Positions 1 through 31,826 of a stretch of DNA of 61,650 nt are shown in pieces. Position numbers and translations under genes: made by a program. Origin of the DNA: Thermoanaerobaculia bacterium (GTDB taxonomy: Bacteria > Acidobacteriota > Thermoanaerobaculia > Gp7-AA8); contig DATFHJ010000254.1 of NCBI GenBank assembly GCA_035248585.1, positions 1 to 61,650 of the forward strand, in the 5' to 3' direction. Every line of letters starts with the position of its first letter. Positions within the stretch are counted from its first letter, which is position 1. The notes beneath the pieces are model-generated. The model searched no databases. It was not told where the DNA came from and saw nothing but the letters and a program-made list of their open reading frames with translations.

Positions 1-780
1 CATGCCGGCCCAGCGCCCCATCGGCGGGCGTTGTTCGATAAGCCATTGGCCGGTGTGCTCGATGCAGAGGATCGCACGGCGATGCAGGGGGTTGATCTTC
101 GACTTGCGGCGAACCGGGATCTGCTCCTGCAGGCCCGCAGCCTGGGCTTCACAGAAGGCTCGCACCGGGCAGATGAGGCATTGCGGATTGCGTGGTGTGC
201 ACACGGTGGCGCCCAGCTCCATCATCGCGGAGTTGAAGTCGCCGACTTCCTTTCGGGGGAGGATTTCTTCGGCTCGTTGCCAAAGACGTGCCAAAGTCGC
301 CTTCTCGCGCGGGTCGGACTCGATTTTGTCGATCCGGCAGAGCACGCGGGCGACGTTGCCGTCGACGATCGGCGCGCGCTCGTTGTACGCGATCGACGCG
401 ATCGCGCCGGCGGTATAGCGCCCCACGCCGGGCAGCGCCATGAGCGCGTCGAGCGTGCGCGGCACGACGCCGTTCGCCGCGCGCGCCGCCGCGTGCAGCA
501 TCCGCGCGCGGCGGTAGTAGCCGAGTCCCGACCACGCCGCCATCACATCCTGTTCCGTGGCTTCGGCGAGCGCGCGCAGCGTCGGAAAGCGTTTGACGAA
601 CCGCGCAAAATACGGGAGCACGACTTCCATCCGCGTCTGCTGCAACATGACCTCGGAGACCCAGACGTGGTACGGCGCGTAGCGCTTGCGCCAGGGGAGA
701 GGTCGCTGGTGTTTCGCGAACCACGACTCGATGCGGCGCGCGAGGCGGGGAAGGTCCGTAGCTTGCAAACCTGCCGTCAT
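1..780 (-). CDS. mutY: A/G-specific adenine DNA glycosylase MutY (C-terminal part runs off the window)
   Basis: My translation of the minus strand from ATG at 780-778: MTAGLQATDLPRLARRIESWFAKHQRPLPWRKRYAPYHVWVSEVMLQQTRMEVVLPYF...SGLGYYRRARMLH...LPGVGRYTAGAIASIAY...CTPRNPQCLICPVRAFC (HhH-GPD plus Cys cluster). Absent from the ORF track because there is no stop inside the window. Confidence 0.85.
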   Translation of the reverse strand, partial: MTAGLQATDLPRLARRIESWFAKHQRPLPWRKRYAPYHVWVSEVMLQQTRMEVVLPYFARFVKRFPTLRALAEATEQDVMAAWSGLGYYRRARMLHAAARAANGVVPRTLDALMALPGVGRYTAGAIASIAYNERAPIVDGNVARVLCRIDKIESDPREKATLARLWQRAEEILPRKEVGDFNSAMMELGATVCTPRNPQCLICPVRAFCEAQAAGLQEQIPVRRKSKINPLHRRAILCIEHTGQWLIEQRPPMGRWAGM

Positions 781-815
781 TGTATTCTTCAGTTCGTTCC
801 GCGAGAGGACTATCG

Positions 816-1601
816 ATGAGTGAGCAGGCGCAGCCCGAAACCGAACAGGGCAAATACGTTTACTGCATCATCAAAACCGACACGCCGCGCGACTTCGGCG
901 GCGTCGGCATCGGCGGCCGGAGAGACCGCGTCTACACCGTGCATTACCGCGAGTTCGCGGCCGTCGTTTCCAACTGCCCGCTGATCGTCTTCGATCCCAC
1001 GCGCGAGAACGCGCTGGCCCACGAGCACGTGAACGAGCTGGTGATGAAGGACTTCACCGTCCTGCCGATGAGCTTCGGCACGGTCTTCCGCACCGAGAAC
1101 GACATCAAAGAGTTCCTCAAGGGCACGTACGAGGCGCTCAGCGACGTGCTCCAGAAGATGGAAGGGAAGATCGAGTTCGGTCTCAAGGTGAATTGGGACA
1201 AGGACCAGGTCATCCGCGAGATCGAGACCGAGAACGAAGAGATCCGGCGCCTCAAGGAAGAGATCTCGTCCAACACCTCGACGTCGACGTACTTTTCGCG
1301 CATGCAGCTCGGCCGCGTCGTCGAGTCGGCGCTGCAGGCGAAAGCCGACGCGTACGTGACGGAGATCTACGAAGCGCTGCGCGATGCCGCCATCGCCTCG
1401 CGCTCGAACAAGCCGATCGGCGACAAGATGATCATGAACGCCGCCTTCCTCGTCGAGCGCGACAAGACGAAGGCGTTCGACGACCAGATCTCCGACATCG
1501 CGAAAAAGTACGAGAACAAGCTCTCGTTCCTCTACACGGGCCCGTGGCCGCCGTATAACTTCGTGAATATCCGGCTCAAGTTGGAGCGCGCGGAGAGATA
1601 G
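816..1601 (+). CDS. gvpF: Gas vesicle protein GvpF/GvpL family (GvpF by position before gvpG)
   Basis: ATG 816 lies 6 nt after AGAGGA. N-terminus KYVYCIIKTD...YREFAAVVSNCP...FTVLPMSFGTVF and C-terminus LSFLYTGPWPPYNF are typical of GvpF/L. Its stop abuts the gvpG start. Confidence 0.85.
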   Translation: MSEQAQPETEQGKYVYCIIKTDTPRDFGGVGIGGRRDRVYTVHYREFAAVVSNCPLIVFDPTRENALAHEHVNELVMKDFTVLPMSFGTVFRTENDIKEFLKGTYEALSDVLQKMEGKIEFGLKVNWDKDQVIREIETENEEIRRLKEEISSNTSTSTYFSRMQLGRVVESALQAKADAYVTEIYEALRDAAIASRSNKPIGDKMIMNAAFLVERDKTKAFDDQISDIAKKYENKLSFLYTGPWPPYNFVNIRLKLERAER

Positions 1602-1925
1602 TTGGCCTTCATCCTCGACGACATCCTCCTCCTCCCCATCAAGGGGCCGATCGCCGGCTTCCGCTGGATCATGTCGACGATTCAGAAGATGGCGGACGAG
1701 GAGCTGATGAACGATCAGCCTTGGAAGGAGCGGCTGATCGAGCTGCAGATGCAGCTGGAGCTCGGCGAGATCAGCGAGGAGGACTACACGCGCGAAGAGG
1801 CGGTCGTGTTCCAGGCGCTGCGGGACATTCGCGCGCGGAAGGAAGCGATCGCGCGCGAGTACGCCGCGCAGCAGGGCGAAGAAGACGGCGGGATCGGCAT
1901 TTACACTGGCTACGGTGATCGATGA
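1602..1925 (+). CDS. gvpG: Gas vesicle protein GvpG
   Basis: TTG start directly after the gvpF stop. MAFILDDILLLPIKGPIAGFRWIMSTIQKMADEELMND...LIELQMQLELGEISEEDY matches the GvpG pattern. Confidence 0.8.
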   Translation: MAFILDDILLLPIKGPIAGFRWIMSTIQKMADEELMNDQPWKERLIELQMQLELGEISEEDYTREEAVVFQALRDIRARKEAIAREYAAQQGEEDGGIGIYTGYGDR

Positions 1926-2039
1926 CTTACAGTTTATCCCGCGCGTAGACGCGGGATCTCCTCGTGCAGCGCGGTGCCACCGGAGATGCCGCGTCTGCGC
2001 GCGGCATAAACTGAGAAACTGGCTACGGTGATCGATGAC
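1905..2039. mobile_element. Miniature hairpin-pair (MITE/BIME-like) insertion with a 22-bp flanking direct duplication
   Basis: ACTGGCTACGGTGATCGATGAC occurs at 1905-1926 and again at 2018-2039, bracketing a 91-bp insert (1927-2017). The insert ends are 32-bp inverted repeats: 1930-1961 CAGTTTATCCCGCGCGTAGACGCGGGATCTCC versus the reverse complement of 1982-2013, 29/32 identical. Each arm is an 8-bp-stem hairpin. No ORF inside. Confidence 0.55.
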
Positions 2040-3704
2040 GAGCTGCGCGCGCTCTCCTCGCGCCGCGTAATCCTCTTCGGCGGCAAAGGCGGCGTCGGAA
2101 AAACGACGCTCGCGTCGCACGCCGCGAACGTCCTCGGCGCGACGCTCCTGAACATCGAATCGCTCGACGCGCACGCGCTGTACCGGCGCTTCCTCGATCA
2201 GCATCTCGAGCAATTCATCGAGATCGGCGACCGCGGGACGTATCTCGATCGCGAAGAGCTGCGCCGCTTCTTCGAGCTCTCGCTCCCCGGCGTCGACGAG
2301 CTGATGGCCTGGATGCACATCGGCGAGCTGGTCGAAGAGAACGCCGGCCGCACCGTCGTCGTCGACACCGCGCCGACCGGCCACACGCTGCGCATGCTCT
2401 CCTCGTCCGAGCACTTCCGCCAGCTCGCGCTGGCGCTCGATGCCATGCAGGAGAAGCATCGCGCGATGGTGCAACAGTTCACGCGCCGCGTGTCGCGCGA
2501 CGCGCTCGACACGTTCATCGAGGACTTTGATGCCCGTGCGAAACGCTACCGCGCGCTGATCGATACATTCATTCCCGTCACGCTCTCGGAACCATGGGTC
2601 GTAGAGCAGACGGTGCGTCTCATTAACGAACTGGAAGGCATTGACGTCCCATTCGTCGTACTCAATCGCGCCGTGCATGACATCGACTGCAAGCTCGATC
2701 GCGAGCGCGCGAAGCGCGACGAGGCCGCGCGGGCGAAGTTCAAGAAGGTCGTTGATTTTCCGAGGTCGTGCGTACCGCTTTGGAATCGTGGAGCGGCGGG
2801 CTTTAGCCCGCCGAAACAAACCCGGCGGGCTGAAGCCCGCCGCTCCACATTGACGTTCTTCGCAGGCAAGGGCGGCGTCGGAAAAACGACGTGCGCCTCT
2901 TCGATGGCGTTGCACCTCGCGCAAACGCGGCGCGTGACGCTGCTCTCCGTCGATCCCGCGCACACGGTCCGCGACGTGTTCGCGCACGAGCCGCCGCCGG
3001 CGAATTTGACGGTCGAGGCGATCGACACGAAGGCGAAGTGGCGGCAGTTTCGCGCGACGCTCGGCGTGGAGATCGATCGCGCGCTCGACGCGCTCACGCC
3101 GAGGGGGATGACGCTCGGCTATGACGCCGAGGCCATGCAGCGGCTCGTCGAGATCGCGCCGCCGGGAGCGGACGAGCTGTTCGCCATCACGCGACTCGCC
3201 GACCTCGCGAACGAGGAAATCGTCATCGTCGACACCGCGCCGACCGGCCACTTCCTGCGCCTGCTCGAGCTCCCGCAGCAGGCCGGCGAGTGGGTGCGTG
3301 AGTTCATGCGCCTCCTCCTCCGTTATCGCGATCTCATCCCGCCCGGTTCCCTCGGTGAAGAGCTCGTGCGTGCCTCGCGCGCGTTGAAAGAGCTCGACGA
3401 AACGCTGCATTCGGATAAAGCCGCCGTGATCGTGGTGACGCGTCCCGAGCCGGCTGTCATCGACGAAACGAAACGGCTCATCGACACGCTGCAACAGCGC
3501 GGCATCACGATCGGCGGCGTGATCGCCAACTACGTCACACCCGAGAACGAGTGCAAGTGCGATCAAACGATCCGCGGCTACGAGCTGGAGGCCCTCGCTG
3601 CGCTCGACGTCACCCACACCATCGAGCGCAGCGACGAGCCGCCCATTTCATTGCAGCGACTTGAGCGCATCGGCGGCGCGCTTGTACGCCGGATCGAGCC
3701 GTAA
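2028..3704 (+). CDS. Tandem-domain ArsA/Get3-family P-loop ATPase (anion-transporting ATPase-like)
   Basis: Two homologous halves, each with GKGGVGKTT (Walker A) and DTAPTGH motifs (GGKGGVGKTTLAS...VVVDTAPTGHTLRML; FAGKGGVGKTTCAS...SVDPAHT...IVIVDTAPTGHFLRLL). GTG start lies inside the duplicated 22-mer. A repeat element is translated at the inter-half linker. Confidence 0.85.
   Translation: MIDDELRALSSRRVILFGGKGGVGKTTLASHAANVLGATLLNIESLDAHALYRRFLDQHLEQFIEIGDRGTYLDREELRRFFELSLPGVDELMAWMHIGELVEENAGRTVVVDTAPTGHTLRMLSSSEHFRQLALALDAMQEKHRAMVQQFTRRVSRDALDTFIEDFDARAKRYRALIDTFIPVTLSEPWVVEQTVRLINELEGIDVPFVVLNRAVHDIDCKLDRERAKRDEAARAKFKKVVDFPRSCVPLWNRGAAGFSPPKQTRRAEARRSTLTFFAGKGGVGKTTCASSMALHLAQTRRVTLLSVDPAHTVRDVFAHEPPPANLTVEAIDTKAKWRQFRATLGVEIDRALDALTPRGMTLGYDAEAMQRLVEIAPPGADELFAITRLADLANEEIVIVDTAPTGHFLRLLELPQQAGEWVREFMRLLLRYRDLIPPGSLGEELVRASRALKELDETLHSDKAAVIVVTRPEPAVIDETKRLIDTLQQRGITIGGVIANYVTPENECKCDQTIRGYELEALAALDVTHTIERSDEPPISLQRLERIGGALVRRIEP
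2788..2848. repeat. Family-1 double-hairpin palindromic element, copy A (intragenic, in frame)
   Basis: GTGGAGCGGCGGGCTTTAGCCCGCCGAAACAAACCCGGCGGGCTGAAGCCCGCCGCTCCAC. Read through as ...[20 protein letters not shown]... in the ArsA-like ORF. Confidence 0.9.
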
Positions 3705-4706
3705 CGCGCGCTCGTACTCCGCGCGTGCCTTCGTCTTGTCGCCTGCCGTCGCGTACGCGCGCCCGAGGCCGAAGGCGGACGTGGCGGCGTTCGGATAATC
3801 GCGTGCGTTTGTTTCGAGCAGCGCGATCGCCGCGGCGTGATCGCCCATCTTGAGCATCTGATAGCCGATGGCTTCGATGCCGGCGCGCGTGTCGACGTCG
3901 GGATAGGTCTCGCGAAAATCGGCGTAGCTCCACCGCACCGCCGCCGCGTCGGCGCGCTCGTTATAGAGCTGCTCGAGCAGCGTTTGCAGGCGCGAGCGCG
4001 AGTACTGCGGCGGCAGGAACCACGACGCCGGCAGCTCGCGGTTGATCTCGATTTTGCCCCACTGCATCGAATTCAATTCTTTCCCGGTCGCGAGATCGAC
4101 TTCGTAGGCCTTGAACGGAATCAGCACGCCGCTGACGTCTCTCCAGTCGCTGAAGCGTCCCTCGGTTTTCACGCTCTCGCCGAACGCATGCACGGGCGCG
4201 TGGTAGCGATCCGCGAGGAGAAGAAAGTTTTCTTTGTCGATGAAGTAATCGTGCGCGAAATCGTCGCGCGTCGTGACGATGACGCGATAGGCCGGGCGTC
4301 CACCGATCGTCTCCTCCGCGCCGAGCTCGACTCGCGAGCCGTGGCCGCGAAGCTCGCCGAGGCGCCAGTCGATGTACGTGCCGCGCCGCGCCGCGCCGGC
4401 GGCGTGGCCGATCGTGCGCACGACGACGCCGGGCTCGCGATAGAACTCCCACGGGCTGCCGTCGTATCCCTCCATGATGTCGGCGTTCCCCTCGGGGTCT
4501 CCGACGAGGCGGTAGAACGGCCGCGCGAAGGCCATGAACGCGTTGCCGCTGCCGGTGTAGCTGCCCTCGTGATACGTGCCGCGGCTGAAGACCAGCGTGC
4601 GGACGGCTTTGATTTTCTCGGCGCCGCCGCGCGCGGCGAGATGGCGGTCGATGACTTCGTTCACGGTGAGGGCATGTAAGAGGAGAAGTAAACTGAGCTT
4701 GTGCAT
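3648..4706 (-). CDS. Secreted LolA-like (outer-membrane lipoprotein-sorting-like) protein with C-terminal TPR
   Basis: Start at MHKLSLLLLLHA (signal-like), followed by LTVNEVIDRHLAARGGAEKIKAVRTL, typical of LolA-like sorting proteins. C-terminus DHAAAIALLETNARDYPNAATSAFGLGRAYATAGDKTKARAEYERALRLDP is TPR-like. High GC3. The upstream part of the 452-aa track ORF is antisense to gvpL. Confidence 0.7.
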   Translation of the reverse strand: MHKLSLLLLLHALTVNEVIDRHLAARGGAEKIKAVRTLVFSRGTYHEGSYTGSGNAFMAFARPFYRLVGDPEGNADIMEGYDGSPWEFYREPGVVVRTIGHAAGAARRGTYIDWRLGELRGHGSRVELGAEETIGGRPAYRVIVTTRDDFAHDYFIDKENFLLLADRYHAPVHAFGESVKTEGRFSDWRDVSGVLIPFKAYEVDLATGKELNSMQWGKIEINRELPASWFLPPQYSRSRLQTLLEQLYNERADAAAVRWSYADFRETYPDVDTRAGIEAIGYQMLKMGDHAAAIALLETNARDYPNAATSAFGLGRAYATAGDKTKARAEYERALRLDPAYKRAADALKSLQ

Positions 4707-5468
4707 GTCCTGTACGTGTACTGCCTGACGCGCGGCCCGGTTAGTCCGGAGACCGAGGGCGTCGATCAAACGCGGCGCTTTGGAACGGCGTCCATCGACG
4801 GCGTGAGCGCGGTCTTCACGGCCGTGGACGCCGAGGCCTTCTCGCAGGAGACGATCGACCAGCGTGCGAAGGATCTCGAATGGCTCGGCGCGATCGGCTA
4901 TCGCCATCAGGCCGTGATCCAGGACGTGATGAAACAGAGCGCGGTGATTCCGCTGCGCGCATTCACGCTGTTCAGCAGCGAAGAAGCGCTGCGCTCGTAC
5001 CTGCACGAAAACGCGGAGATGCTGCGCCGCGCGCTGGAGCGGCTCGAAGGGAAGCAGGAGTGGACGCTGCGCGTGGAGGTGGAGCCGGCGCGCTGGAGCG
5101 AAGCGCTGGTGGCGCGCGTCGACTCACTGCGCGAGTTGCAGCACCAGATGGAGCAAGCCGCGCCGGGAAAAGCGTTCCTGCTGCGCAAGAAGCTCGAGGA
5201 TGAGAAGAAGCGCGCGTCGCATGCGGCGGAAGAGGCGCTGGTGGCGGAGATCGAGCGCGAGGTGCTGGAGCGGCTGCGCTGCGAGACCGTGGCCGAGTCG
5301 CGCGAGCGGCGCGACGGCGCGTTTCCGCAGATCAACGTGCTGATCGAGCGCGATGAAGAAGCGACGCTGCAGGAGCTGCACGCCTCGCTGACCGACCGCT
5401 ACGCCGGCGAGGGCGTCGCCCTTGCACTGACGGGACCGTGGCCGCCGTATACGTTTGCGCATGCCTAA
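4701..5468 (+). CDS. gvpL: Gas vesicle protein GvpL/GvpF family (GvpL by position before gvpS)
   Basis: MHVLYVYCLTRG...GVSAVFTAVD...AVIPLRAFTLF...VALALTGPWPPYTF. GTG start. Overlaps the 5' end of the antisense gene by 6 nt. Confidence 0.8.
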   Translation: MHVLYVYCLTRGPVSPETEGVDQTRRFGTASIDGVSAVFTAVDAEAFSQETIDQRAKDLEWLGAIGYRHQAVIQDVMKQSAVIPLRAFTLFSSEEALRSYLHENAEMLRRALERLEGKQEWTLRVEVEPARWSEALVARVDSLRELQHQMEQAAPGKAFLLRKKLEDEKKRASHAAEEALVAEIEREVLERLRCETVAESRERRDGAFPQINVLIERDEEATLQELHASLTDRYAGEGVALALTGPWPPYTFAHA

Positions 5469-5637
5469 TCAAGAAGAAGAACTGAGCGTGCTGGAAATGC
5501 TCGATCACCTGCTCGATCGCGGGGTGGTGATCGCAGGCGAAGCCGTGATCTCGATCGGAGACGTCGACCTGCTCTACCTCGGCCTGAACGTCGTGCTGGC
5601 GAACGTCGACGCGGTCATGCGCGTGTCGAAGCGATGA
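5461..5637 (+). CDS. gvpS: Small GvpA-family gas vesicle protein (GvpS/GvpM-like)
   Basis: ATG 5461 overlaps the gvpL end by 8 nt. LSVLEMLDHLLDRGVVIAGEAVISIGDVDLLYLGLNVVLANVDAV carries the GvpA-family core. Confidence 0.7.
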   Translation: MPNQEEELSVLEMLDHLLDRGVVIAGEAVISIGDVDLLYLGLNVVLANVDAVMRVSKR

Positions 5638-6257
5638 AACACGTCGCGGTCGGCGTGCATCTGCGCCGGGAAGACATCGAGCCGCTCGCGACGCCGATCG
5701 CCGCCGGGGAGCTGTTCTTCAGCGCCGTCGCCGTTCCCGACGATCAGCCGCTCGGCGATCGCGATCTGCTTGTGCGCGTGGCGAACGTTCGCGCGCAACT
5801 ATTGGAGCGCGCGACGTTCATCGCCGTCCGCTACGGCTACACGTTCGCGCGCGAAGTCGATGCGCAACAGCTCGGGCGATGGAAGCGGGTGCTCGAAGCG
5901 AATTCGGACCGCGTCGAAATGACGATCAAAGTCGCAGCGGCTTCGCCTCGCCCGCGGCCCGACCGCGCCGCGTTCACGAGCGGCGCGGAGTATCTGCGCG
6001 CGCTGCACGAGGCGACGCAGGGCGCGGCGGCCGATCCGCGCTTTCGCGAGGAAGCGGAGCGACTGCTGCTGCCGCACGCGGTGCAGTATCGCTGGACGCA
6101 TCGCGACGAGAAATCGCTCGAGCTGACGTTGCTGGTCGCGCGCGGAGACGTTGACGCCGTTCGAAGTGCGGGCGGCACGTTGAAAGAAACAGGCGTCCCG
6201 TTTTTGCTGTCGGGACCGTGGCCGCTGGAGGCGTTCGCCGATGCTGATCACGAATGA
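5634..6257 (+). CDS. Divergent short GvpF/GvpL-like protein (third paralog)
   Basis: ATGA overlap with gvpS. ELFFSAVAVPDD...ATFIAVRYGYTF and C-terminal VPFLLSGPWPLEAF mirror the motifs of the other two GvpF/L proteins. Only 207 aa. Confidence 0.6.
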   Translation: MKHVAVGVHLRREDIEPLATPIAAGELFFSAVAVPDDQPLGDRDLLVRVANVRAQLLERATFIAVRYGYTFAREVDAQQLGRWKRVLEANSDRVEMTIKVAAASPRPRPDRAAFTSGAEYLRALHEATQGAAADPRFREEAERLLLPHAVQYRWTHRDEKSLELTLLVARGDVDAVRSAGGTLKETGVPFLLSGPWPLEAFADADHE

Positions 6258-6564
6258 AGAACAGGAGCTGCGCCAGGCGCTGACGTTCACGGAGTCGATC
6301 GTGCCGGAGCGGATCTCCGCCGATTCGGAGATCGTGGAGAACGGATTGGCGAAACTCGTTCTGTCGATCATTGAGCTGATCCGGCGCCTGCTGGAGAAGC
6401 AGGCCCTCCGGCGCATGGACGCGGGCAATCTGACGGAAGAAGAGATCGAGCGGCTCGGCAACGCGCTGATGAAGCTCGAAGAAAAGATGGCCGAGCTCAA
6501 GCGTGTGTTCGGCCTCAGCGACGAAGACCTCAACTTGAAGCTCGGTCCCGTGAAGACGCTGTGA
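6241..6564 (+). CDS. gvpK: Gas vesicle protein GvpK
   Basis: GLAKLVLSIIELIRRLLEKQALRRMDAGNLTEEEIERLGNALMKLEEKMAELKRVFGL...DLNLKLGP is the canonical GvpK core. Confidence 0.85.
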   Translation: MLITNEEQELRQALTFTESIVPERISADSEIVENGLAKLVLSIIELIRRLLEKQALRRMDAGNLTEEEIERLGNALMKLEEKMAELKRVFGLSDEDLNLKLGPVKTL

Positions 6565-6579
6565 TATTTTCCGCCGCGC

Positions 6580-6903
6580 ATGCCCATCGATGATCGGGGA
6601 GTGGTGCAGCGGCAGCCGCAGGGCCTCGTCGATATCCTCGACAAAATTCTGGACAAGGGGCTCGTCGTCGCCGGCGACGTGAAGGTGTCGCTGGCGAACG
6701 TAGAGCTCCTGACGATCCAGCTTCGCCTGGTGATCTGTTCGATCGACAAGGCCGAAGCGATCGGCATCAACTGGTGGCGCTCGGACCGCTTCTACTCGAG
6801 CGATCCGAAGGCGCTGCACGGTGCGGAGGAGTACGACGAGCTGCGCAACCGCATCGCCGAGCTCGAACGTCAATTGAGTACCCGAGAGAGGAAAGGTAGG
6901 TAA
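6580..6903 (+). CDS. gvpJ: Gas vesicle protein GvpJ (GvpA family, extended C-terminus)
   Basis: GLVDILDKILDKGLVVAGDVKVSLANVELLTIQLRLVICSIDKAEAIG. Confidence 0.8.
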   Translation: MPIDDRGVVQRQPQGLVDILDKILDKGLVVAGDVKVSLANVELLTIQLRLVICSIDKAEAIGINWWRSDRFYSSDPKALHGAEEYDELRNRIAELERQLSTRERKGR

Positions 6904-6906
6904 GTC

Positions 6907-7191
6907 ATGGCTGTTGAACGCGCACCGGGCGGTACCAGTCTCATTGACGTACTCGACCGGATTCTCGACAAAGGCATCGTCGTCGACGCATGGGTGCGCA
7001 TCTCCCTCGTCGGCATCGACCTGATTACCGTTGAGGCCCGCGTCGTGATCGCGTCCATCGATACGTACCTGAAATACGCCGAGGCCGTCGGCATCACCTC
7101 CACTGTCGCGCGTCCCGCGCTGGGACCGGGCGAAGGCGGGGGCGTGGGAGCGACCACGGCGGCAGCGCCCGCCGGCGTCACGCGGCCGTAG
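6907..7191 (+). CDS. gvpA: Major gas vesicle structural protein GvpA
   Basis: [52 protein letters not shown] is near-canonical GvpA. About 25 aa of Gly/Ala/Pro-rich C-terminal tail follow. Confidence 0.9.
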
Positions 7192-7193
7192 TG

Positions 7194-7253
7194 GTGGAGC
7201 GGCGGGCTTTAGCCCGCCGGATTCAATGGGCGGGCTAAAGCCCGCCCCTCCAC
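7194..7253. repeat. Family-1 double-hairpin palindromic element, copy B (between convergent stops)
   Basis: GTGGAGCGGCGGGCTTTAGCCCGCCGGATTCAATGGGCGGGCTAAAGCCCGCCCCTCCAC. Starts 3 nt after the gvpA stop and ends 3 nt before the S9 peptidase stop. Confidence 0.9.
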
Positions 7254-7255
7254 AG

Positions 7256-9306
<2,051 letters not shown>

Positions 9307-12581: not shown

Positions 12582-12639
12582 ATGGAGCGGCGGGCTTCAG
12601 CCCGCCGAATTGCCGGCGGGCTGAAGCCCGCCGCTCCAC
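12582..12639. repeat. Family-1 double-hairpin palindromic element, copy C
   Basis: ATGGAGCGGCGGGCTTCAGCCCGCCGAATTGCCGGCGGGCTGAAGCCCGCCGCTCCAC. Begins 2 nt after the M50 protease stop. Confidence 0.9.
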
Positions 12640-18880: not shown

Positions 18881-19497
18881 CCCTTTTTCCGCGCCCGCAG
18901 ATACTCGATCACCGCCGGGATGAGCGAGACCAGGATCACCACCACGATGATGATGTGGATGTGCTTCTCCGCGTTCGGGATGATCTTCAGCAGCACGTAG
19001 CCGGTCATCGTCATCGAGAACACCCAGCCCACGCCGCCGATGATGTTGAAGAGCGCGAAATGGCGGTAGGTCATGTTCGCCATGCCGGCGACGATCGGCG
19101 CGAAGGTGCGGATGATCGGGACGAAGCGGGCGATGATGATGGTCTTGCCGCCGTGCCGCTCGTAGAACTCGTGCGCGGCGATGAGGTGCTTCTTCTTGAA
19201 GAGCATCGAGTCTTCCTTGCGGAAGAGCGCCGGCCCGAGCTTCTTGCCGGTGTAGTAGCCGACGGCGTCGCCGGTGATGGCGCAGACCATCAGCAGCGCG
19301 TTCAGGAATACGATGTTGAGATCGCCCTTCGCCGCGAAGAGGCCGGCCGTGACGAGGAGCGAGTCGCCGGGGAGGAAGAAGCCGATCATCAGACCGGTCT
19401 CGGCGAAGACGATGATCGCGAGCGCGACGTAGCCGCCGGTCTGCACCAAACCGCGGACGTCCGTGATGAAATGAAAGAAGTCGCGAATCGATTCCAT
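18877..19497 (-). CDS. dedA: DedA family membrane protein
   Basis: Start MESIRDFF. FAETGLMIGFFLPGDSLLVTAG...GGKTIIIARFVPIIRTFAP is a typical DedA/SNARE-associated core. Confidence 0.85.
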   Translation of the reverse strand: MESIRDFFHFITDVRGLVQTGGYVALAIIVFAETGLMIGFFLPGDSLLVTAGLFAAKGDLNIVFLNALLMVCAITGDAVGYYTGKKLGPALFRKEDSMLFKKKHLIAAHEFYERHGGKTIIIARFVPIIRTFAPIVAGMANMTYRHFALFNIIGGVGWVFSMTMTGYVLLKIIPNAEKHIHIIIVVVILVSLIPAVIEYLRARKKG

Positions 19498-19516
19498 GAG
19501 GGACGCGCATCCTAGC

Positions 19517-21055
19517 ATGCCCATTTCAGGCCATTTCGATGTCGTCATCCTCGGCGGCGCCTTCAGCGGCGCGTCCGCGGCGATCCTTCTGCGCCGCGAT
19601 CATCCTCAGTTGCGCGTGCTGATCGTCGAGAAGGCCGTGGCCTTCGATGAGAAGGTCGGCGAGGCCACGACCGAGATGTCGGCGATGTTCCTCACGCGCC
19701 GCCTGGCGATGTGGCATCACCTCGAGCGCGAGCAGCTTCCGAAAGAAGGGCTGCGCTACTGGTTCTCGAACGAGCGTGTGACCGGCCATGCGAACGCGAG
19801 CGAGAGCGGCGGCTTCATCCGCAGCGCGGTGCCGGCGTTCCAGCTGCGCCGCGACGCGCTCGACGAACATCTGCTCGCCACGGCCGTCCAGGAAGGCGCC
19901 GAGCTGTGGCGTCCCGCGAAAGCGCGCGACGTCGTCCTCGGCGAGTTCGATCACAAGCTGACGGTCGAGATCGGCGACGAAGTGCGCGAAGTCGCCTGCT
20001 CCTGGATTCTCGACGCCACCGGCCGCGTGAACTTCCTCGGCCGGCGCCTGAATCTCATCGAGCGCAACGACGAGCATCCGACCGCCGCCATCTGGTGCCG
20101 CTGGAAAAACGTCCGCCACATCGACGATCTCGCCGCGCGCAGCGGCCTTGCGCGAAGCAACGTCGGGTCGCGCCGCCTGGCCACGAATCACTACATGGGC
20201 CTCGGCTACTGGATCTGGGTGATTCCGCTCGGCAACGGCGAGACGAGCATCGGCGTGGTGTTCGACAAGCGGCTCGTGGAGCTGCATCACAGCAAGAACC
20301 GCGCGGACGATTTCATCGCCTTTCTGAACGCGATTCCCTCGCTCGCGGAGCTCCTCGTCGACGCCGAGCCGCGCCTCGACGATCTCCGTTTCTACTCGCA
20401 CCTGCCGTACGCGTCGAAGCAGTACATGGGCCGCGGCTGGGCGCTCCTCGGCGATGCGGCCGCGTTTCTCGATCCGTACTACTCGCCCGGGCTCGATCAC
20501 GCCTCGTTCACCGCCGAGGCCACGGCCGAGATCATCGGCAAGCAGGCGATGGGCGAGGACGTGACCGCGCGCATCACCGAGCACAACGAAACGTTCGTGC
20601 GCTCGTACTGGCGCTTCTTCCGCGCGGCGTACAAGGACAAGTACTACTACATGGGCGAGTCGGACCTCTTGACCGCCTCGTTCCTCATCGACACCGCGCA
20701 GTACTACCTCTTCGTGGTGATCCCCGCGTACAAGTTCCTCAAGCGCTTCGACTGGATGCCGGTCCTCGGTCCGAAGCCGGCGTTCCTCAGCTATCACCTG
20801 ATGCAGCTCTACAACCGCCGCTTCAAGGCTCTCGCCGAAGCGCGCCGCGCCGCCGGCGAAGCCGGCCGGCGCAACGACGCGCGGCGCATCAAGGCCTACT
20901 ACAACCTCGGCTTCGCGCCGCTCCGCATGGCCGCGCGCGGCATGAAGCTGTGGATGTTCGCGGAGCTCGATTCCGTGCGGCTGCTGTGGAAGCGCCTGTG
21001 GCGGAAAACGCCGCGCGAAGAAGTCAGCGCGGCTCCAACACGATCTCCGTTGTAG
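19517..21055 (+). CDS. FAD-dependent oxidoreductase, flavin-halogenase-like (paralog 1)
   Basis: FDVVILGGAFSGASAA (dinucleotide fold), WIWVIPLGNGETSIGVV and GDAAAFLDPYYSPGLD are motifs typical of tryptophan-halogenase-like flavoenzymes. Confidence 0.75.
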   Translation: MPISGHFDVVILGGAFSGASAAILLRRDHPQLRVLIVEKAVAFDEKVGEATTEMSAMFLTRRLAMWHHLEREQLPKEGLRYWFSNERVTGHANASESGGFIRSAVPAFQLRRDALDEHLLATAVQEGAELWRPAKARDVVLGEFDHKLTVEIGDEVREVACSWILDATGRVNFLGRRLNLIERNDEHPTAAIWCRWKNVRHIDDLAARSGLARSNVGSRRLATNHYMGLGYWIWVIPLGNGETSIGVVFDKRLVELHHSKNRADDFIAFLNAIPSLAELLVDAEPRLDDLRFYSHLPYASKQYMGRGWALLGDAAAFLDPYYSPGLDHASFTAEATAEIIGKQAMGEDVTARITEHNETFVRSYWRFFRAAYKDKYYYMGESDLLTASFLIDTAQYYLFVVIPAYKFLKRFDWMPVLGPKPAFLSYHLMQLYNRRFKALAEARRAAGEAGRRNDARRIKAYYNLGFAPLRMAARGMKLWMFAELDSVRLLWKRLWRKTPREEVSAAPTRSPL

Positions 21056-22271: not shown

Positions 22272-23492
22272 CTACAACGCCGCGAGCACGGCGCGCTTGA
22301 TCTTGCCGCGCTCGTCGAGCGGCATCGCGTCGATGAGCTTCACGATGCGCGGCACTTTGTGCAGCGACAGCCGCGCGCGGCAAAACTCGCGCACCATTTC
22401 GCGCGTGACGTCCGGCGTCGCCACGATGGCGGCCGCGACCACTTCGCCGCGCGCGCCCGCCGCTTCGCCGTACACCTTCGCCTCGCGCACGCCTTCGAGC
22501 TGCAGGATTACCGCTTCCACTTCGCGCGGGTTCACCTTCTTGCCGGCCGTGTTGATGAGATCCGACGCGCGTCCCGTGAGCACGAGCTCGCCGTCGTCAT
22601 TCATCGCCACGAGGTCATCGGTGATGAACGAGCCGCCAACAGCGGACGCGCTTTGCACCGTGAGGCGCGCGTTTTCGATCGACAGCGAAACGCCGTTCAT
22701 CGCCGCGCCGACCGTCCCGCGCTCCGCCGCCGCGCCGAGGCGGTCGTACGTGATGCCGCCGGTCTCGCTGCAGCCGTAGAACGAGTGAATGGGGAGGCCG
22801 AAGCGCTCGCGGAAACGGCGCGACGTCAATGCCGGCAGCGGCGCGCCGGCGGAGAGGAACGTGCGGACCGTCTCGAATGTGCCATGCGCGGCGGTGGCGA
22901 GGTGATCGAACACCATCGGAATCAGCGGCGCGACCGTGCAGCGATGCGCGTTCGCGAGATCGACGAGCGACTGCGGCAGATACGCGTTCGTCGCTACGAC
23001 CGGTGTGCCCTGCAGCAGCAGCGGCATGACGAGATTGGAGAAGCCGTACGAGTGCGAGAAGGGGATCGCGCCGAGGTTGATGTCGTCCGGGGCGATCTCC
23101 ATCGTCGAGCAGATGTTCTCGCAGTCGGCGATGAGATTCGCTTCGCTGGTGTAGATCCCTTTCGGCTTGCCGGTCGAGCCCGAGGTCACTTTGATGAGGC
23201 GCGTGCCCGCGGGGAACGGCGGCTGGAAGCTCGCCCGGATGTTCGCCACCTCGGCGTCCGCGGCATCGCGATCGATCGGGATGACGACGAGGTCGAGTTG
23301 CAGCGCCGCGACAAACGTGGCCACGAATTCGGCCGAGTTCGGCAATTGCAGCGCCAGCGGCTCGCTCGGAAGCCGCTCCGCGACCTCATTCGCGCGCGCC
23401 CACAGCTCCGCGCGCGTGACGGCGCGGCCGTCTTCGATGACGGCGACGGCGCGCGGATCGCGCTCCACGAGCCTCAGGAATCGATCGAGCAT
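22272..23492 (-). CDS. AMP-dependent synthetase/ligase (short acyl-AMP/acyl-ACP ligase type)
   Basis: Start MLDRFLRLVERDP. TSGSTGKPKG (AMP-binding core), YGCSETGG, TGRASDLINTAGKKV. The N-terminal part of the 645-aa track ORF is antisense to the next gene. Confidence 0.8.
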   Translation of the reverse strand: MLDRFLRLVERDPRAVAVIEDGRAVTRAELWARANEVAERLPSEPLALQLPNSAEFVATFVAALQLDLVVIPIDRDAADAEVANIRASFQPPFPAGTRLIKVTSGSTGKPKGIYTSEANLIADCENICSTMEIAPDDINLGAIPFSHSYGFSNLVMPLLLQGTPVVATNAYLPQSLVDLANAHRCTVAPLIPMVFDHLATAAHGTFETVRTFLSAGAPLPALTSRRFRERFGLPIHSFYGCSETGGITYDRLGAAAERGTVGAAMNGVSLSIENARLTVQSASAVGGSFITDDLVAMNDDGELVLTGRASDLINTAGKKVNPREVEAVILQLEGVREAKVYGEAAGARGEVVAAAIVATPDVTREMVREFCRARLSLHKVPRIVKLIDAMPLDERGKIKRAVLAAL

Positions 23493-23534
23493 TGCAGAAT
23501 AAGATCTTCCCACAAGACGGTTTGTTGCCCGCGA

Positions 23535-24518
23535 ATGCGTGATGTCCTCGTCATCGGCGGCGGTCCAGCCGGAACCACGGCCGCGACTCTCCTGGTACAG
23601 CGCGGGCTCTCCGTAACGCTTCTCGAGCGCGAACGCTTTCCGCGTTTTCAAATCGGCGAGTCGCTGCTGCCGTACAACAACGACCTCTTCGCGCGCCTCG
23701 GCGTGACCGACCAGCTCCTGCAGGGCGACTTTTTCCCGAGATTCGGCGCCGACTTTGTCACCGGAGACGGCAGCGTCAGCTTCCGCTTCCGCTTCGACAA
23801 GCGCCTGCGCGACCCCTATCGCCGCTCGTTCCAGGTCCGGCGCTCCGAGTTCGATCACCTGTTGCTGAAGAACGCCGAGCAGCACGGCGTCGACGTGCGG
23901 CAGGAGACGCCGGTGACGTCGGTCGATCTCAGCGATCCGAACAAAGCGATCGTGAATGGCGAGCTGGAAGCGCGCTTCGTCATCGACGCCAGCGGCCACG
24001 GCTCGATCGTCGGCAGCCGCGTCGGCGCGAAGGAAGACGTGAAGGCGCTGAAGAAAATCGCGTTCTTCGCGCACTACCGGAACGTCCCGCGCGACGCGGA
24101 CAAGGACGCGGGCAACACCGTCATCGTCGTTCTCCGCGACGCCTGGTTCTGGCTGATCCCGATCACCGCGGACGTGATGAGCGTCGGCCTCGTCGTCGAC
24201 CGCGAACACTTCGTTTCCTGCGGCCTGGAGCCGCAGGCGTTGCTCGAGCAGACGATCGCGGATACGCCGTGGGTGGCGGAGCGGATGAAAGACGCCGAGC
24301 GCGTGTCGCCGATCCGCGCGCGCAAGGATTTCTCCTTCCGCATGCGCAACATCGCCGGCCCGAACTACGCGCTGATCGGCGACGCGGCAGGATTCCTCGA
24401 TCCGATTTTCTCCACCGGCGTGTTCATGGCCATGAAGTCCGCCGACATGGCCGCGGGCGCGATCGAGTCGCGAACCGCGACAATCGCTTCAAAATCTGGC
24501 TCTTCTTCCTCCTCGTGA
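23535..24518 (+). CDS. FAD-dependent oxidoreductase, flavin-halogenase-like (paralog 2; 3' end probably frameshifted, coding signal continues to 24598)
   Basis: MRDVLVIGGGPAGTTAA, WFWLIPITADVMSVGLV, GDAAGFLDPIFSTGV. The last ~16 codons have low GC3, while an alternative frame keeps high GC3 down to TGA 24596-24598. Confidence 0.7.
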   Translation: MRDVLVIGGGPAGTTAATLLVQRGLSVTLLERERFPRFQIGESLLPYNNDLFARLGVTDQLLQGDFFPRFGADFVTGDGSVSFRFRFDKRLRDPYRRSFQVRRSEFDHLLLKNAEQHGVDVRQETPVTSVDLSDPNKAIVNGELEARFVIDASGHGSIVGSRVGAKEDVKALKKIAFFAHYRNVPRDADKDAGNTVIVVLRDAWFWLIPITADVMSVGLVVDREHFVSCGLEPQALLEQTIADTPWVAERMKDAERVSPIRARKDFSFRMRNIAGPNYALIGDAAGFLDPIFSTGVFMAMKSADMAAGAIESRTATIASKSGSSSSS

Positions 24519-24603
24519 ACGTGCACAAGCGCCTCGGCAAGCTCGCCCCGCCCATCGCCTGGGACTCGCTGCCGGCCGCCGCTGCTAAACTGACGTGACT
24601 TTT

Positions 24604-24882
24604 ATGACCGATCCGAACCTCAAACGAAAACTGAAAGAGCTGCTCATCGAGCGGCTGAAGTTCGAAGACATGACCCCCGAGGACATCGAGGATGACGCGC
24701 CGCTCTTCGCCGGCGGCCTCGGCCTCGATTCCATCGACGCGCTGGAGATCGTGGTGATGCTGGAGAGCGAGTTCGGCATCAAGGTGAAGAACGAAAGCGC
24801 GGCGCGCGACTACTTCGTCTCCGTCTCCACGCTCGCCGCGTACGTCGACGCCAAGCTCGCAGAGGCGAACGCCAGCGCGTGA
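24604..24882 (+). CDS. Acyl carrier protein
   Basis: LGLDSIDALEIVVMLESEFGI with the phosphopantetheine Ser motif DSI. About 92 aa. Confidence 0.85.
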   Translation: MTDPNLKRKLKELLIERLKFEDMTPEDIEDDAPLFAGGLGLDSIDALEIVVMLESEFGIKVKNESAARDYFVSVSTLAAYVDAKLAEANASA

Positions 24883-25244
24883 GCTGGCTCGCCCGGCTCC
24901 CGCATCAGATTCCGTTCCGCGCGGCGTCCGCCGCGCATCGCATCGACGAGAAATCGATCGAAGGCGTCTACGTCTGCACTGCCAATGACATGGCGACGGC
25001 GGAGGTGATGGTCGTCGAGGCGATGGCGCAGTTCGCGGGCGGGCTCGTGTTCGAAGCGCAGGGCTTCTTCACCGGCATCGACCGCTGCGAAGTGCTGCGC
25101 GCGATCGAGCCGGGCGACGTCGTGGCCATTCGCGTCGAGCTCGAGGCGGAGTTCGGCGGCACGTTTCGATTCAGCGGCAGCGGCAGCATCGATGGAGTAG
25201 ACGTCGTGCGCGGAAGGTTCTACCTCAGCGGTGCGCAAGCCTGA
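24879..25244 (+). CDS. Hotdog-fold protein (FabA/FabZ-like dehydratase candidate)
   Basis: GTGA overlap with the ACP stop. ~120 aa. Placement between ACP and KS, plus ...VVEAMAQFAGGL...GIDRCEVLRAIEPGDVV..., resembles dehydratases of aryl-polyene-type loci. Confidence 0.5.
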   Translation: MSWLARLPHQIPFRAASAAHRIDEKSIEGVYVCTANDMATAEVMVVEAMAQFAGGLVFEAQGFFTGIDRCEVLRAIEPGDVVAIRVELEAEFGGTFRFSGSGSIDGVDVVRGRFYLSGAQA

Positions 25245-26463
25245 TCTCTCCACGCGAATCGCGGTCACCGGAGCCGGCATCGTCTGCTCGATCGGACGCA
25301 ACAAGTCCGAAGTGTGGCAATCGATTGTCGACGCGCGCGCGGGCATCGCGAAGCTGACGCGCTTTCCGGGCGAGACGTTTCCGACCGACATCGCCGCGGA
25401 GGTGAATTTGGAGCGACAGGCTCTCAGCCTGTCGGACGGCGACGGCGGGCTGAGAGCCCGCCGCTCCACGCGGCGGCTCTCGCGCACGGACTTGCTCGCC
25501 GTCGCCGCGGCGAAAGAAGCGATCGAACAAAGCGGGCCGTTTCCGCGCGAGCGCGCCATCGTCAGCACCGGCACGTCGACCGGAGGCTTGCTCGAAGGCG
25601 AGGATTACTACTTCCGCCGCATCGTGCGCGGACGCCGTCGCGCGCCGGTCTCGCTCGTGCTGCAGCAGCCGACGTCGGGTCCGTCCGATGCGGTCGCGCG
25701 CGCGTTCGACCTCGGCGGCGGCGTGCTTTCGAACGCGACCGCGTGCGCATCCGCCGGCGCGGCAATCGGAATGGCCGCCGACTATCTCCGCTCCCGCCAC
25801 GCCGACGTCGCCATCGCCGGCGGCAGCGACGCGCTGTGCCGCCTGACCTACAGCGGCTTCAACGTCCTGCAGGCCGTCGATCCGCAGCCGTGCACGCCAT
25901 TCGATGCGGCGCGCAAAGGCATCACCCTCGGCGAAGGCGCCGGCTATCTCGTGCTCGAGCGCTGGGACGACGCCGTCGCGCGCGGCGCAACCATCCTCGC
26001 GGAGCTGTGCGGCTACGGCGCGTCGTGCGACGCCCATCATCCGACCGCGCCCGCCGAAGACGGCCGCGGCGCCGAAGCCGCCATGCGCGGCGCGCTCGCC
26101 GAAGCGCAGCTCGACGCGTCTTCCATCGACTACGTCAACGCCCACGGCACCGGCACGACACTCAACGACTCCGCCGAGACGAAGGCCATCATCTCCTCCC
26201 TCGGCACGGGCGTCCCGGTCTCGTCGTCAAAATCCTACTTCGGCCACACCCTCGGCGCCTCCGGCGCCGTCGAAGCCGTTGTCTCCATCCTCGCCCTCCA
26301 GCACCAAACCGCCCCGCCCACGCTCCGCCTCCGCGAGCGCGCCCCCGACTGCACGCTCGACTACATCCCCGAAACCCCGCGCCCGATGGCCATGGAGAAC
26401 GTGCTTTCGAATACATTTGGCTTCGGAGGTAGCAACGTCTCGTTGCTGTTCCGGAGAGTTTGA
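25231..26463 (+). CDS. Beta-ketoacyl-ACP synthase (KAS I/II type, FabF-like)
   Basis: RIAVTGAGIV; active-site ATACASAG (Cys), CDAHHPT (His), VNAHGTGT (His), GFGGSN. Carries a repeat copy in frame. Confidence 0.9.
   Translation: MRKPDLSTRIAVTGAGIVCSIGRNKSEVWQSIVDARAGIAKLTRFPGETFPTDIAAEVNLERQALSLSDGDGGLRARRSTRRLSRTDLLAVAAAKEAIEQSGPFPRERAIVSTGTSTGGLLEGEDYYFRRIVRGRRRAPVSLVLQQPTSGPSDAVARAFDLGGGVLSNATACASAGAAIGMAADYLRSRHADVAIAGGSDALCRLTYSGFNVLQAVDPQPCTPFDAARKGITLGEGAGYLVLERWDDAVARGATILAELCGYGASCDAHHPTAPAEDGRGAEAAMRGALAEAQLDASSIDYVNAHGTGTTLNDSAETKAIISSLGTGVPVSSSKSYFGHTLGASGAVEAVVSILALQHQTAPPTLRLRERAPDCTLDYIPETPRPMAMENVLSNTFGFGGSNVSLLFRRV
25409..25469. repeat. Family-1 double-hairpin palindromic element, copy H (intragenic, in frame; hybrid left arm)
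   Basis: TGGAGCGACAGGCTCTCAGCCTGTCGGACGGCGACGGCGGGCTGAGAGCCCGCCGCTCCAC. Translated as LERQALSLSDGDGGLRARRST in the KS. Confidence 0.8.
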
Positions 26464-27476
26464 CGAACCGCATCCCCATCACCGGCATCGGCGTCATCGC
26501 GCCCGCGCCCATCGCGCCGGTCGACCGTTTCGACACCAGCGGTCTCTCCGCGCACACGGCGGCGCTGGTGCGCGATTTCAAGCCGAAGGACTACATCGCG
26601 CCGATGAAGATGCGGCGGATGAACGCGCTGTCGCGGCTCGCGATGGCGGCGGCGAAGCTGGCCATCGACGATTGCGGCGCGGTGCCGGGCGCGAACACGG
26701 GCGTCGCGCTCGGGACGGCGTTCGGGCCGGTGCAGACGTCGGTCGACTACATGAAGGAGTACATGGAGAAAGGCGCGGCCCTCGCGCCGCCGCAGCTGTT
26801 CGCGGAGTCGGTCGCGAACGCGCCGGGGAGTCACATTGCCATCGAGTGGAACCTGCGCGGCTTCAACGTCACGTTCACGCAGCGCGAGTCGTCCGCGCTC
26901 GCGGCGGCGATGTACGCGTGTACGCAGCTCGCGAAAGGCGCCGCGGACGCGGCGCTGATCGGCGGCGTCGATGAAGTGAACGAGATGCTCTTCAGCGTCC
27001 TCGATCGCGTCGGCGCGCTCGACGATGCGATGGAGCACGGCATGATTCTCGGCGAGGGAAGCGCGGTGCTCGTCGCCGGCAACGCGGGCACGCGCGCGCC
27101 GTACGCGTGGCTCTCCGGATTCGGCGTCGCGCGCGATACGACGGCGTCGATCTCCGATTGGGGCACGGGCGCGGAAAGCGTGGTCGCGGCGATGCAGGCG
27201 GCGATCGATGATGCGGAGCTGACGGTCGCCGACATCGGCGCGGTCTACGTCTCCGCGAACGGGTCGGCGCGCGGCGACGCGCTCGAATTGCGTGCACTGC
27301 AACTGCTGTTCGGCGCGAAAATGCCGGAGCTCGTGAAGACGAAATCGGTGTTCGGTGAATACGCGGCCGGCGGAGCGTTGCAGCTCGTCGAGGCGGTTCG
27401 CGGCGCGCATGGGCATGCGCTCGTGAATTCACTCTCCGCGGGCGGCGGGATCGTCTGTGCGGTGGTGTCGCGATGA
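26460..27476 (+). CDS. Ketosynthase-like protein lacking catalytic Cys/His (chain-length-factor-like partner)
   Basis: TTGA overlap with the KS stop. RIPITGIGVIAP. The KS active-site Cys position reads TFTQRESSAL and the second His position reads VSANGSARGD. Confidence 0.75.
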   Translation: MTNRIPITGIGVIAPAPIAPVDRFDTSGLSAHTAALVRDFKPKDYIAPMKMRRMNALSRLAMAAAKLAIDDCGAVPGANTGVALGTAFGPVQTSVDYMKEYMEKGAALAPPQLFAESVANAPGSHIAIEWNLRGFNVTFTQRESSALAAAMYACTQLAKGAADAALIGGVDEVNEMLFSVLDRVGALDDAMEHGMILGEGSAVLVAGNAGTRAPYAWLSGFGVARDTTASISDWGTGAESVVAAMQAAIDDAELTVADIGAVYVSANGSARGDALELRALQLLFGAKMPELVKTKSVFGEYAAGGALQLVEAVRGAHGHALVNSLSAGGGIVCAVVSR

Positions 27477-31806: not shown

Positions 31807-31826
31807 GCGTTACAATCAGGAGATCC

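Follow-up and report, generated by a model that had tools for sequence, protein, structure and literature searches.

How a gas-vesicle gene cluster might work when it carries neither gvpN nor gvpC, and has an ATPase gene of the ArsA type among its assembly genes, is the question raised by positions 816–7191 of a contig from a Thermoanaerobaculia bacterium (DATFHJ010000254.1; the whole 61,650-nt stretch, or 61.65 kb, is referred to here as the window). The locus lies between mutY and a gene for an S9 peptidase, and comprises nine plus-strand genes in the order gvpF-gvpG-ATPase-gvpL-gvpS-gvpF'-gvpK-gvpJ-gvpA, with one further gene on the opposite strand. We read it as a functional, vertically inherited gas-vesicle operon of an uncultured soil acidobacterium, in which a Get3-like ATPase is an integral assembly factor and assembly is independent of GvpN, and give this reading a probability of roughly 0.6.

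All nine plus-strand open reading frames (ORFs) were present within 816–7191, and the Gvp families to which the initial annotation had assigned them by eye were upheld in every case by profile searches with Pfam and NCBIfam, in which matches were judged against family cut-offs or gathering scores. Each of the nine proteins had support from one database or the other, and the accessory genes (F/L, G, K, J and S/M) were above the Pfam gathering scores. A first module is opened by gvpF (816–1601; GvpL_GvpF, 261 bits), whose product also matched the solved GvpF structures 6L5D and 4QSG; there follow gvpG (1602–1925; GvpG, 63.9 bits, cut-off 30.6), encoding a protein with a hydrophobic N-terminal helix, and the gene for a tandem, pseudo-dimeric P-loop ATPase of the ArsA/Get3 family (2028–3704; ArsA_ATPase, 225 bits). 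A second module is opened by gvpL (4701–5468; GvpL_GvpF, 160.6 bits), for which the top NCBIfam match was GvpL at 108.6 bits, under the 200-bit cut-off. This is followed by a small gvpS/M-like gene of the GvpA family (5461–5637, or with its start at 5455; Gas_vesicle, 47.9 bits), by gvpF' (5634–6257; GvpL_GvpF, 31.3 bits, cut-off 23.6), a divergent third GvpF/L paralog that aligned to GvpL only in its C-terminal part and is kept at the same position in relatives, by gvpK (6241–6564; GvpK, 112.8 bits), by a gvpJ-like gene of the GvpA family (6580–6903; Gas_vesicle, 60.7 bits) and finally by gvpA (6907–7191; PRK09371 in NCBIfam, 118 bits, cut-off 100), the gene for the shell protein.

Residues 1–71 of GvpA matched the solved Anabaena GvpA (8GBS; 97.9 bits, E = 3.6e-27), and the B. 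megaterium structure 7R1C was matched at 82 bits. Several structural details read from the letters were also seen, namely the tail of GvpA (about 23 residues, rich in Gly, Ala, Pro and Thr), the shared (S/T)GPWPxxxF ending of the three GvpF/L paralogs, and the terminal position of gvpA, which is kept in relatives as well. The tight coupling of the genes was equally evident in the ORF list: gvpF and gvpG abut at 1601/1602, an ATGA junction occurs at 5634–5637, and there are overlaps of 8 nt (5461–5468) and 17 nt (6241–6257).

The ratio of nonsynonymous to synonymous substitution rates (dN/dS) was calculated pairwise between the window and L001 (related loci are cited by such numbers). This was 0.018 for gvpA, 0.039 for gvpF, 0.065 for gvpK, 0.11 for gvpJ, and 0.15–0.19 for gvpG, gvpL, gvpS, gvpF' and the ATPase gene (0.19 for the last), compared with 0.40 for mutY and 0.29 for the S9 peptidase gene; that is, purifying selection was stronger on the gvp genes (0.02–0.19) than on the flanking genes (0.29–0.40). 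GvpF shared 98% amino acid identity with L001 and 95% with L003, despite an identity of 54% for mutY in the latter, while residues 1–72 of GvpA were near-invariant in more than 50 relatives, the tail being always present and variable in sequence. Because dN/dS is low, GvpF is so well kept in L003 and the core of GvpA is almost invariant, these comparisons at the sequence level rule out a pseudogene or relic; vesicle formation itself is not thereby proven. We consider it very probable that the operon builds gas-vesicle-type structures.

Relatives were collected in a species-level scan (one genome per species), which produced 110 confirmed relatives, of which 80 were kept and 67 were informative after local annotation. 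All 80 were metagenome-assembled genomes (MAGs) from Thermoanaerobaculia or Acidobacteriota, with no isolate among them, and the named examples among the thousands of close homologues of the ATPase were likewise MAGs of these groups; the acidobacterial host that had been suspected from the letters was thus confirmed by its closest genomes. Both modules occurred together in 54 of the 67 informative loci, with the order gvpF-G-ATPase-L-S-F'-K-J-A in nearly all, and such two-module loci shared one chromosomal site, flanked by mutY on one side and by S9 peptidase and SecA genes on the other. The possibility of a mobile island was ruled out by the conservation of this site across species. The nine-gene order recurred even where GvpL was only 25–30% identical (L128, L139, L150 and L155), in loci whose ATPase relatives are annotated as Pyrinomonadaceae (class Blastocatellia); one copy of the Pyrinomonadaceae type, on a contig of 4.68 Mb, had quite different neighbours. 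The claim of a distinct and unusual architecture did not survive this comparison, given that the arrangement is common in Thermoanaerobaculia, has the same order in Pyrinomonadaceae, and that gvp clusters containing ArsA homologues had already been described in 2010 (PMC2963123).

The two modules are separable. In 13 of the 67 loci (L013–L016, L021, L026, L028, L030, L034, L036, L040, L073 and L083), mutY was followed by gvpF, gvpG and the ATPase gene alone, and then by enolase or other genes, with module 2 not within 10 kb; conversely, module 2 stood alone in metagenomic loci (L098 and L096; in L100 and L101, gvpJ was divergent from gvpL). In one locus (L052), the L-S-F'-K segment was inverted. 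On account of the split loci, the stand-alone copies and the lineage-specific cargo at the junction (described below), the locus is interpreted as two modules, gvpF-G-ATPase and gvpL-S-F'-K-J-A, which meet at a point prone to recombination and insertion.

The ATPase, a protein of 558 amino acids encoded between gvpG and gvpL, is the sole nucleoside triphosphatase (NTPase) of the locus. Each half contained a Walker A motif (GGKGGVGKTT) and a DTAPTGH motif, at residues 18–27 and 113–119 in the first half, and at 280–287 and 402–408 in the second. The protein scored 215.5 bits against the NCBIfam model GET3_arsA_TRC40 (TIGR00345; cut-off 135) and 128 bits against the ArsA equivalog arsen_driv_ArsA, far under the cut-off of 650. 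Its closest sequence match in the PDB was Chlamydomonas ARSA1 (5ZME, 122 bits), a tandem Get3-type factor, with E. coli ArsA at 83 bits; the ATPases of distant gvp clusters scored 185–290 bits. Since the distant gvp copies outscore the structures of both ArsA and Get3, the comparison suggests that gvp-linked ATPases form a distinct subfamily of their own. An AlphaFold2 model (predicted local distance difference test, pLDDT, 83; predicted template modelling score, pTM, 0.82), in which the linker at residues 255–270 was disordered (pLDDT < 50), was superposed by Foldseek on closed ArsA (9NBO; template modelling score, TM, 0.69), on Chlamydomonas ArsA1 and on Get3 structures.

On these sequences, the ATPase appears to be better described as Get3/TRC40-like than as the ArsA of an arsenite pump. 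It shares with Chlamydomonas ArsA1 (5ZME/5ZMF) and with Get3/TRC40 the fold, the deviant Walker A (GKGGVGKT) and DTAPTGH motifs in each half and a one-chain pseudo-dimeric organization, although identity over the structural alignment is about 20%; its gvp-linked relatives also keep the CxxC motifs, which were found in both halves of all seven distant gvp-linked ATPases, like the zinc site of Get3. In alignment to L. ferriphilum ArsA, the two metalloid-binding cysteines in view ('...gacTTEIA...' and '...gdaScLGP...') faced residues other than cysteine, and no arsB, acr3, arsR or arsD gene was found among the neighbouring genes of the window or of the loci of close relatives. Of the features of an arsenite-pump ArsA, the protein has the two homologous P-loop halves with their DTAPTGH motifs, but neither the cysteines in view nor the ars operon context.

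ArsA homologues with two domains have been recorded inside gvp clusters of four phyla (Castillo & Saier 2010, PMC2963123), among them the cluster of 'Acidobacteria bacterium Ellin345', in which two L/F genes and J, K and M accompany the homologue; in the authors' proposal, the ATPase "energizes a biogenic step". The window ATPase has the properties by which clusters 4 and 6 of that study were defined, being a two-domain protein of about 600 residues in a gvp operon without ars genes. The Ellin345 cluster (Koribacter versatilis), published without gene order or experiments and compared here by description only, resembles the window in its two-domain homologue (Aba1), its L/F paralogs, its J, K and M-type genes, and in having no gvpN listed and no ars genes. 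It differs in belonging to another acidobacterial class and in the length of Aba1 (634 against 558 residues), while the window adds a third F/L paralog, the insertions and a degenerate N-terminal site. Literature searches returned no later work on gvp ArsA homologues, no paper linking gas vesicles to Get3, and nothing relevant on gas vesicles in Thermoanaerobaculia or Acidobacteria beyond PMC2963123. Thus the cluster type, which the initial annotation had proposed to seek by synteny, is widespread in soil Acidobacteriota and was noted in 2010, but within the searchable literature it is experimentally untouched.

Vesicles might still be made with the ArsA-like gene as a mere passenger, serving metalloid resistance, the targeting of tail-anchored proteins or Fe-S (iron-sulphur) delivery. 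ArsA homologues do form a functionally promiscuous family (PMC2963123), JGI and NCBI annotations label the gene product as arsenite-transporting, and a gene of this kind is not listed for the characterised clusters (PMC9501494). Yet the adjacency of gvpF, gvpG and the ATPase gene persisted where GvpL was 25–35% identical (L120, L121, L124, L128, L135, L139, L149, L150 and L155), across differing cluster layouts; in relatives the ATPase gene always followed gvpG immediately; the gvpG stop codon overlapped the ATPase start in relatives; and in the 13 split genomes it was with gvpF and gvpG that the ATPase gene remained. When the loss of the metalloid-binding cysteines, the lack of ars genes nearby and the scores of gvp-linked copies, well above those of ArsA and Get3 structures, are also considered, a passenger becomes improbable, and the ATPase is probably a gas-vesicle assembly factor, rather than an arsenic pump.

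Five GvpN sequences from distant gvp loci were used as seeds, and the three that were checked scored 336–348 bits against TIGR02640 (cut-off 266.8). With these, phmmer recovered no GvpN from the six-frame ORFs of the entire window, nor anything credible from some 100 related loci, each taken with as much as 10 kb of flank where the contig was long enough. Scans of the locus proteins and of 16 further ORFs of the window gave no match to GvpC (Gas_vesicle_C) or GvpO; the ORFs that remain look by eye like housekeeping genes (SecA, ClpX, Lon and Rho, for example). The reported lack of all three genes was therefore substantiated over this range. According to a review of gas-vesicle clusters (Pfeifer 2022, PMC9501494), every cluster conserves gvpA, C, F, G, K, L and N; the window cluster departs from this in lacking both GvpN and GvpC, and the related loci in lacking GvpN.

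One explanation would be that the genome has a gvpN gene, and perhaps gvpO or gvpC, at some other site, and that a conventional GvpN-dependent pathway operates from dispersed genes. The genome was surveyed over 61.65 kb, and the cluster can evidently be divided, as the 13 split loci and the stand-alone copies of module 2 demonstrate. Against this, not only were the window and the related loci without GvpN, but in every retrieved cluster that did possess it, gvpN was situated inside the cluster. A further contrast concerned the shell protein: among the loci retrieved here, GvpA always had a C-terminal tail of 20–30 residues in clusters with the ATPase only, but stopped at about residue 71, without a tail, in clusters containing GvpN, which suggests that assembly or surface biology differs between the two. 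This contrast is a correlation limited to the present sample; B. megaterium combines a tailed GvpB with GvpN. Dispersal of the missing genes is accordingly judged unlikely, and GvpN-independent assembly with the Get3-like ATPase remains the preferred reading.

Several observations weigh against that reading. No gas vesicle has been reported from any acidobacterium in the searchable literature, and a scan of 600–7400 found no consensus sigma-70 promoter. Streptomyces-type clusters illustrate that the presence of gvp genes does not guarantee visible vesicles. The operon is disturbed by two insertions, a palindrome downstream of gvpG and a repeat element within the ATPase gene itself. The clusters listed for B. 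megaterium, Anabaena, Halobacterium and Serratia include no ArsA-type ATPase (PMC9501494), and the fold search, which confirmed the ArsA/Get3 fold, did not separate Get3-like from ArsA-like proteins. Unlike Get3/TRC40, moreover, the window ATPase is degenerate at its CxxC positions (C221-x-x-D224 and C509-x-C511-D512) and has lost the TDPAxxLxD motif from its N-terminal half, a deletion shared by a subclade comprising L001, L086, L005–L009, L012, L019, L058–L060, L078 and the window. The search for GvpN covered the window and related loci rather than the whole genome, so that a distant GvpN is possible. Lastly, the F-G-ATPase sub-module occurs alongside GvpN in many distant clusters, often with a CDC48-like double-AAA ATPase beside gvpL.

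The last point limits what the ATPase can be replacing. Because many lineages have the ATPase and GvpN together, the former is not simply a substitute for the latter; it is a widespread accessory, which in the acidobacterial type happens to be the sole NTPase. Clusters containing GvpN, the CDC48-like protein and the ArsA-like ATPase (L120, L121, L124, L135, L149, L133, L136, L156 and L157) resemble the window in the gvpF-gvpG-ATPase sub-module and in their L, S, K, J and A genes, but differ in having two more ATPases and in their GvpA, which is about 71 residues long and has no tail; the window has the ArsA-like ATPase alone and a tailed GvpA.

The CDC48/VCP-like double-AAA ATPase, of about 720 residues, was observed in many of the distant gvp clusters, mostly directly upstream of gvpL (L108, L109, L111, L118, L120, L121, L124, L125, L133–L136, L140, L147, L149, L152, L154, L156, L157, L161 and L164). 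Several of these clusters contained GvpN and the ArsA-like ATPase as well, and so had three ATPases each.

How the Get3-like ATPase might act is suggested by its motifs. The TDPA-type motif carries the catalytic aspartate in Get3 and ArsA. The C-terminal half retains the equivalent motif (SVDPAHxxxD), and from this and the loss in the N-terminal half, the C-terminal half would be expected to hold the only catalytically competent site of the protein. Invariant hydrophobic residues within the predicted helical subdomains (M93, W95, M96, M123, L124, F130, M140, F409, L410, W422, L430, L431 and Y433) are consistent with a client-binding surface, without proving one. In the mechanism proposed, GvpA would form the ribbed shell, GvpJ and GvpS would be minor proteins of the GvpA family, and GvpF, GvpL, GvpF', GvpG and GvpK would supply the assembly and nucleation set, as in other systems. 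With ATP bound and the protein closed, a hydrophobic client would be covered by the helical subdomains of both halves; the client would be either the N-terminal helix of GvpG, which is hydrophobic, or a protein of the GvpA family. It would be set free at the growing vesicle once ATP had been hydrolysed at the intact site of the C-terminal half, and this would be the only ATP-dependent step in a cluster without GvpN. Client and receptor would both be Gvp proteins, in distinction to the membrane proteins handled by Get3/TRC40. Such client handling, drawn by analogy with Get3, is possible rather than probable. Tentative too, and if anything slightly more so, is the fuller proposal that the single-chain ATPase is a dedicated chaperone or insertase for GvpA-family proteins or GvpG, acting without GvpN, and that the tailed GvpA is co-adapted to it.

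Several features of the locus are secondary insertions: the TPR gene on the opposite strand, the palindrome that separates gvpG from the ATPase gene, and the REP-like (repetitive extragenic palindromic) elements. The 102-nt gap between gvpG and the ATPase gene derives from a lineage-specific addition of 113 nt, comprising a 91-nt imperfect palindrome (1927–2017; arms at 1930–1961 and 1982–2013) and one copy of a duplicated 22-nt unit, which flanks the palindrome as a perfect direct repeat within 1905–2039. Its insertion point corresponds to the overlap of gvpG stop and ATPase start in L001, where the 22-nt unit is single. The predicted RNA hairpin was very stable (-61.6 kcal/mol, z = -9.1) and occurred once in the window; it looks like a small hairpin element with a long target duplication. 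The paired REP-like palindrome (GGCGGGCTNNAGCCCGCC, twice) was represented by seven copies in the window (2795–2841, 7201–7246, 12589–12632, 37374–37421, 40241–40285, 48053–48098 and 54451–54497), where none was expected by chance. The first belongs to an element at 2790–2848 (pattern matches at 2795–2812 and 2824–2841), inserted in frame in the disordered linker of the ATPase; the same family was found in the linker of the L006 ATPase. The second lies in a hairpin at 7194–7252 (pattern matches across 7201–7246; -61.8 kcal/mol, z = -9.1), which occupies the space between the convergent gvpA and S9 peptidase genes and could be a bidirectional terminator or a 3' stabiliser of the gvpA message. 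Terminator-like matches in 600–7400 were no commoner than in shuffled sequence, and Rfam and tRNA scans had no match in the locus.

That the locus is a decaying or silent relic is very improbable, since, although the palindrome uncouples gvpG from the ATPase gene, a REP-like element sits within the ATPase coding sequence, an antisense gene is wedged between the modules and the N-terminal TDPA motif is deleted, all ORFs are intact, dN/dS falls below that of the flanking genes, the REP-like insertion is in frame and confined to a disordered, hypervariable linker, the 22-nt duplication preserves both the gvpG stop and the ATPase start such that the two ORFs survive, and the antisense gene occupies the same position in L001, a locus that is equally constrained.

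Two of the seven REP-like copies are within coding sequence, one in the ATPase linker and the other in an ORF at 47742–48329 (an extracytoplasmic function, or ECF, sigma factor by eye), and encode peptides of the 'AAGFSPP...RRAEARRST' type. The interdomain linker of the ATPase (residues ~250–275 in the window) was hypervariable among relatives (L001–L107), ranging from 39 to 139 residues; linkers were rich in repeat-derived peptides (GPIRPIGPI..., PLPPGEGGRRPGEGR..., GFSPPPPGEGGLQPRP), as would befit a tolerated sink for repetitive DNA.

The antisense gene (3648–4706, minus strand) encodes a TPR protein that is weakly LolA-like (Pfam TPR_16 and others). It shares 57 nt with the ATPase gene, at that gene's 3' end, and 6 nt with the start region of gvpL, with the same geometry in L001. 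Its presence inside the locus was correctly noted, but it is not part of the gvp system. The gene was restricted to the window, L001, L064 and L010, being missing from L002, L003, L029 and most other loci, and inserts of 1–3 kb were positioned exactly between the ATPase gene and gvpL in at least nine loci besides the window. Cargo at this junction included a PMT_2 glycosyltransferase (L024 and L081), a Ser/Thr kinase-FGE protein (L063), a CarboxypepD_reg protein (L058) and a lumazine-binding protein (L008). A role for the antisense gene as a gvp component was rejected because of this patchy distribution and the unrelated genes found at the same junction elsewhere; it is therefore regarded as cargo.

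At 4674–4706, the antisense ATG (4706–4704) meets the gvpL start codon GTG (4701–4703), GTGCAT being read both ways, and the likely ribosome-binding site of gvpL (GAGGAG, 4680–4685) is complementary to Leu codons of the TPR gene, in the stretch that encodes the hydrophobic N-terminus of its product. A different additional gene was seen in L002 (13698–14258), between gvpK and gvpJ, for a coiled-coil protein of 186 amino acids without a specific family; it is missing from the window, and its product might be a surface or stiffening protein.

Comparison with characterised clusters, for which the review cited above gives gvpOAFG-JLSK in S. coelicolor and gvpAPQBRNFGLSKJTU in B. megaterium (PMC9501494), modified the view that the window has an actinomycete-like gene set. 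Streptomyces coelicolor, also a soil bacterium, has the A, F, G, J, L, S and K genes and no GvpN or GvpC, and to this extent the likeness in gene content holds. However, it has GvpO, for which the window gave no match, places gvpA near the front and has no ArsA-type ATPase listed. The core order F-G-L-S-K-J is nearer to Bacillus megaterium, which resembles the window further in having no GvpC and in the C-terminal extension of GvpA/B; it differs in possessing GvpN, P, Q, R, T and U of its own, and in the upstream position of gvpA/B. Relative to B. megaterium, the window has an ATPase gene after G and F' after S, places gvpA last and lacks GvpN. Three GvpF/L paralogs, initially thought unusual, are not so, as Serratia has F1–F3 and the clusters of Bacteroidetes and Chlorobi have 4–5 L/F copies (PMC2963123, PMC9501494).

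If the Get3-like ATPase does act as such a chaperone, a targeting factor of the tail-anchor type would be delivering its client to a protein shell instead of a lipid membrane, which bears on how the very hydrophobic GvpA stays soluble and enters the growing vesicle, and on what ATP is for. With nine genes in about 5.6 kb once the insertions are discounted, one ATPase from a mechanistically well-understood family and no GvpN or GvpC, the compact operon would make a simple test system and is a candidate minimal cassette for acoustic-reporter engineering. There is an ecological question also, in that a phylum among the most abundant in soil keeps gvp genes under very strong selection when its vesicles are unreported in the searchable literature.

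Elsewhere in the window, a gene at 30499–31809 (minus strand) encodes a MinD/ParA-type P-loop protein of 436 amino acids with a long C-terminal extension and adjoins a Crp-family regulator (by eye), without a visible link to the gvp genes. A lipid- or polyketide-like set at 22272–27476 contains an acyl-CoA ligase and an acyl carrier protein (NCBIfam) together with two ketosynthase-like ORFs (by eye), and with it is grouped a gene resembling flavin-dependent monooxygenases or halogenases at 19475–21055.

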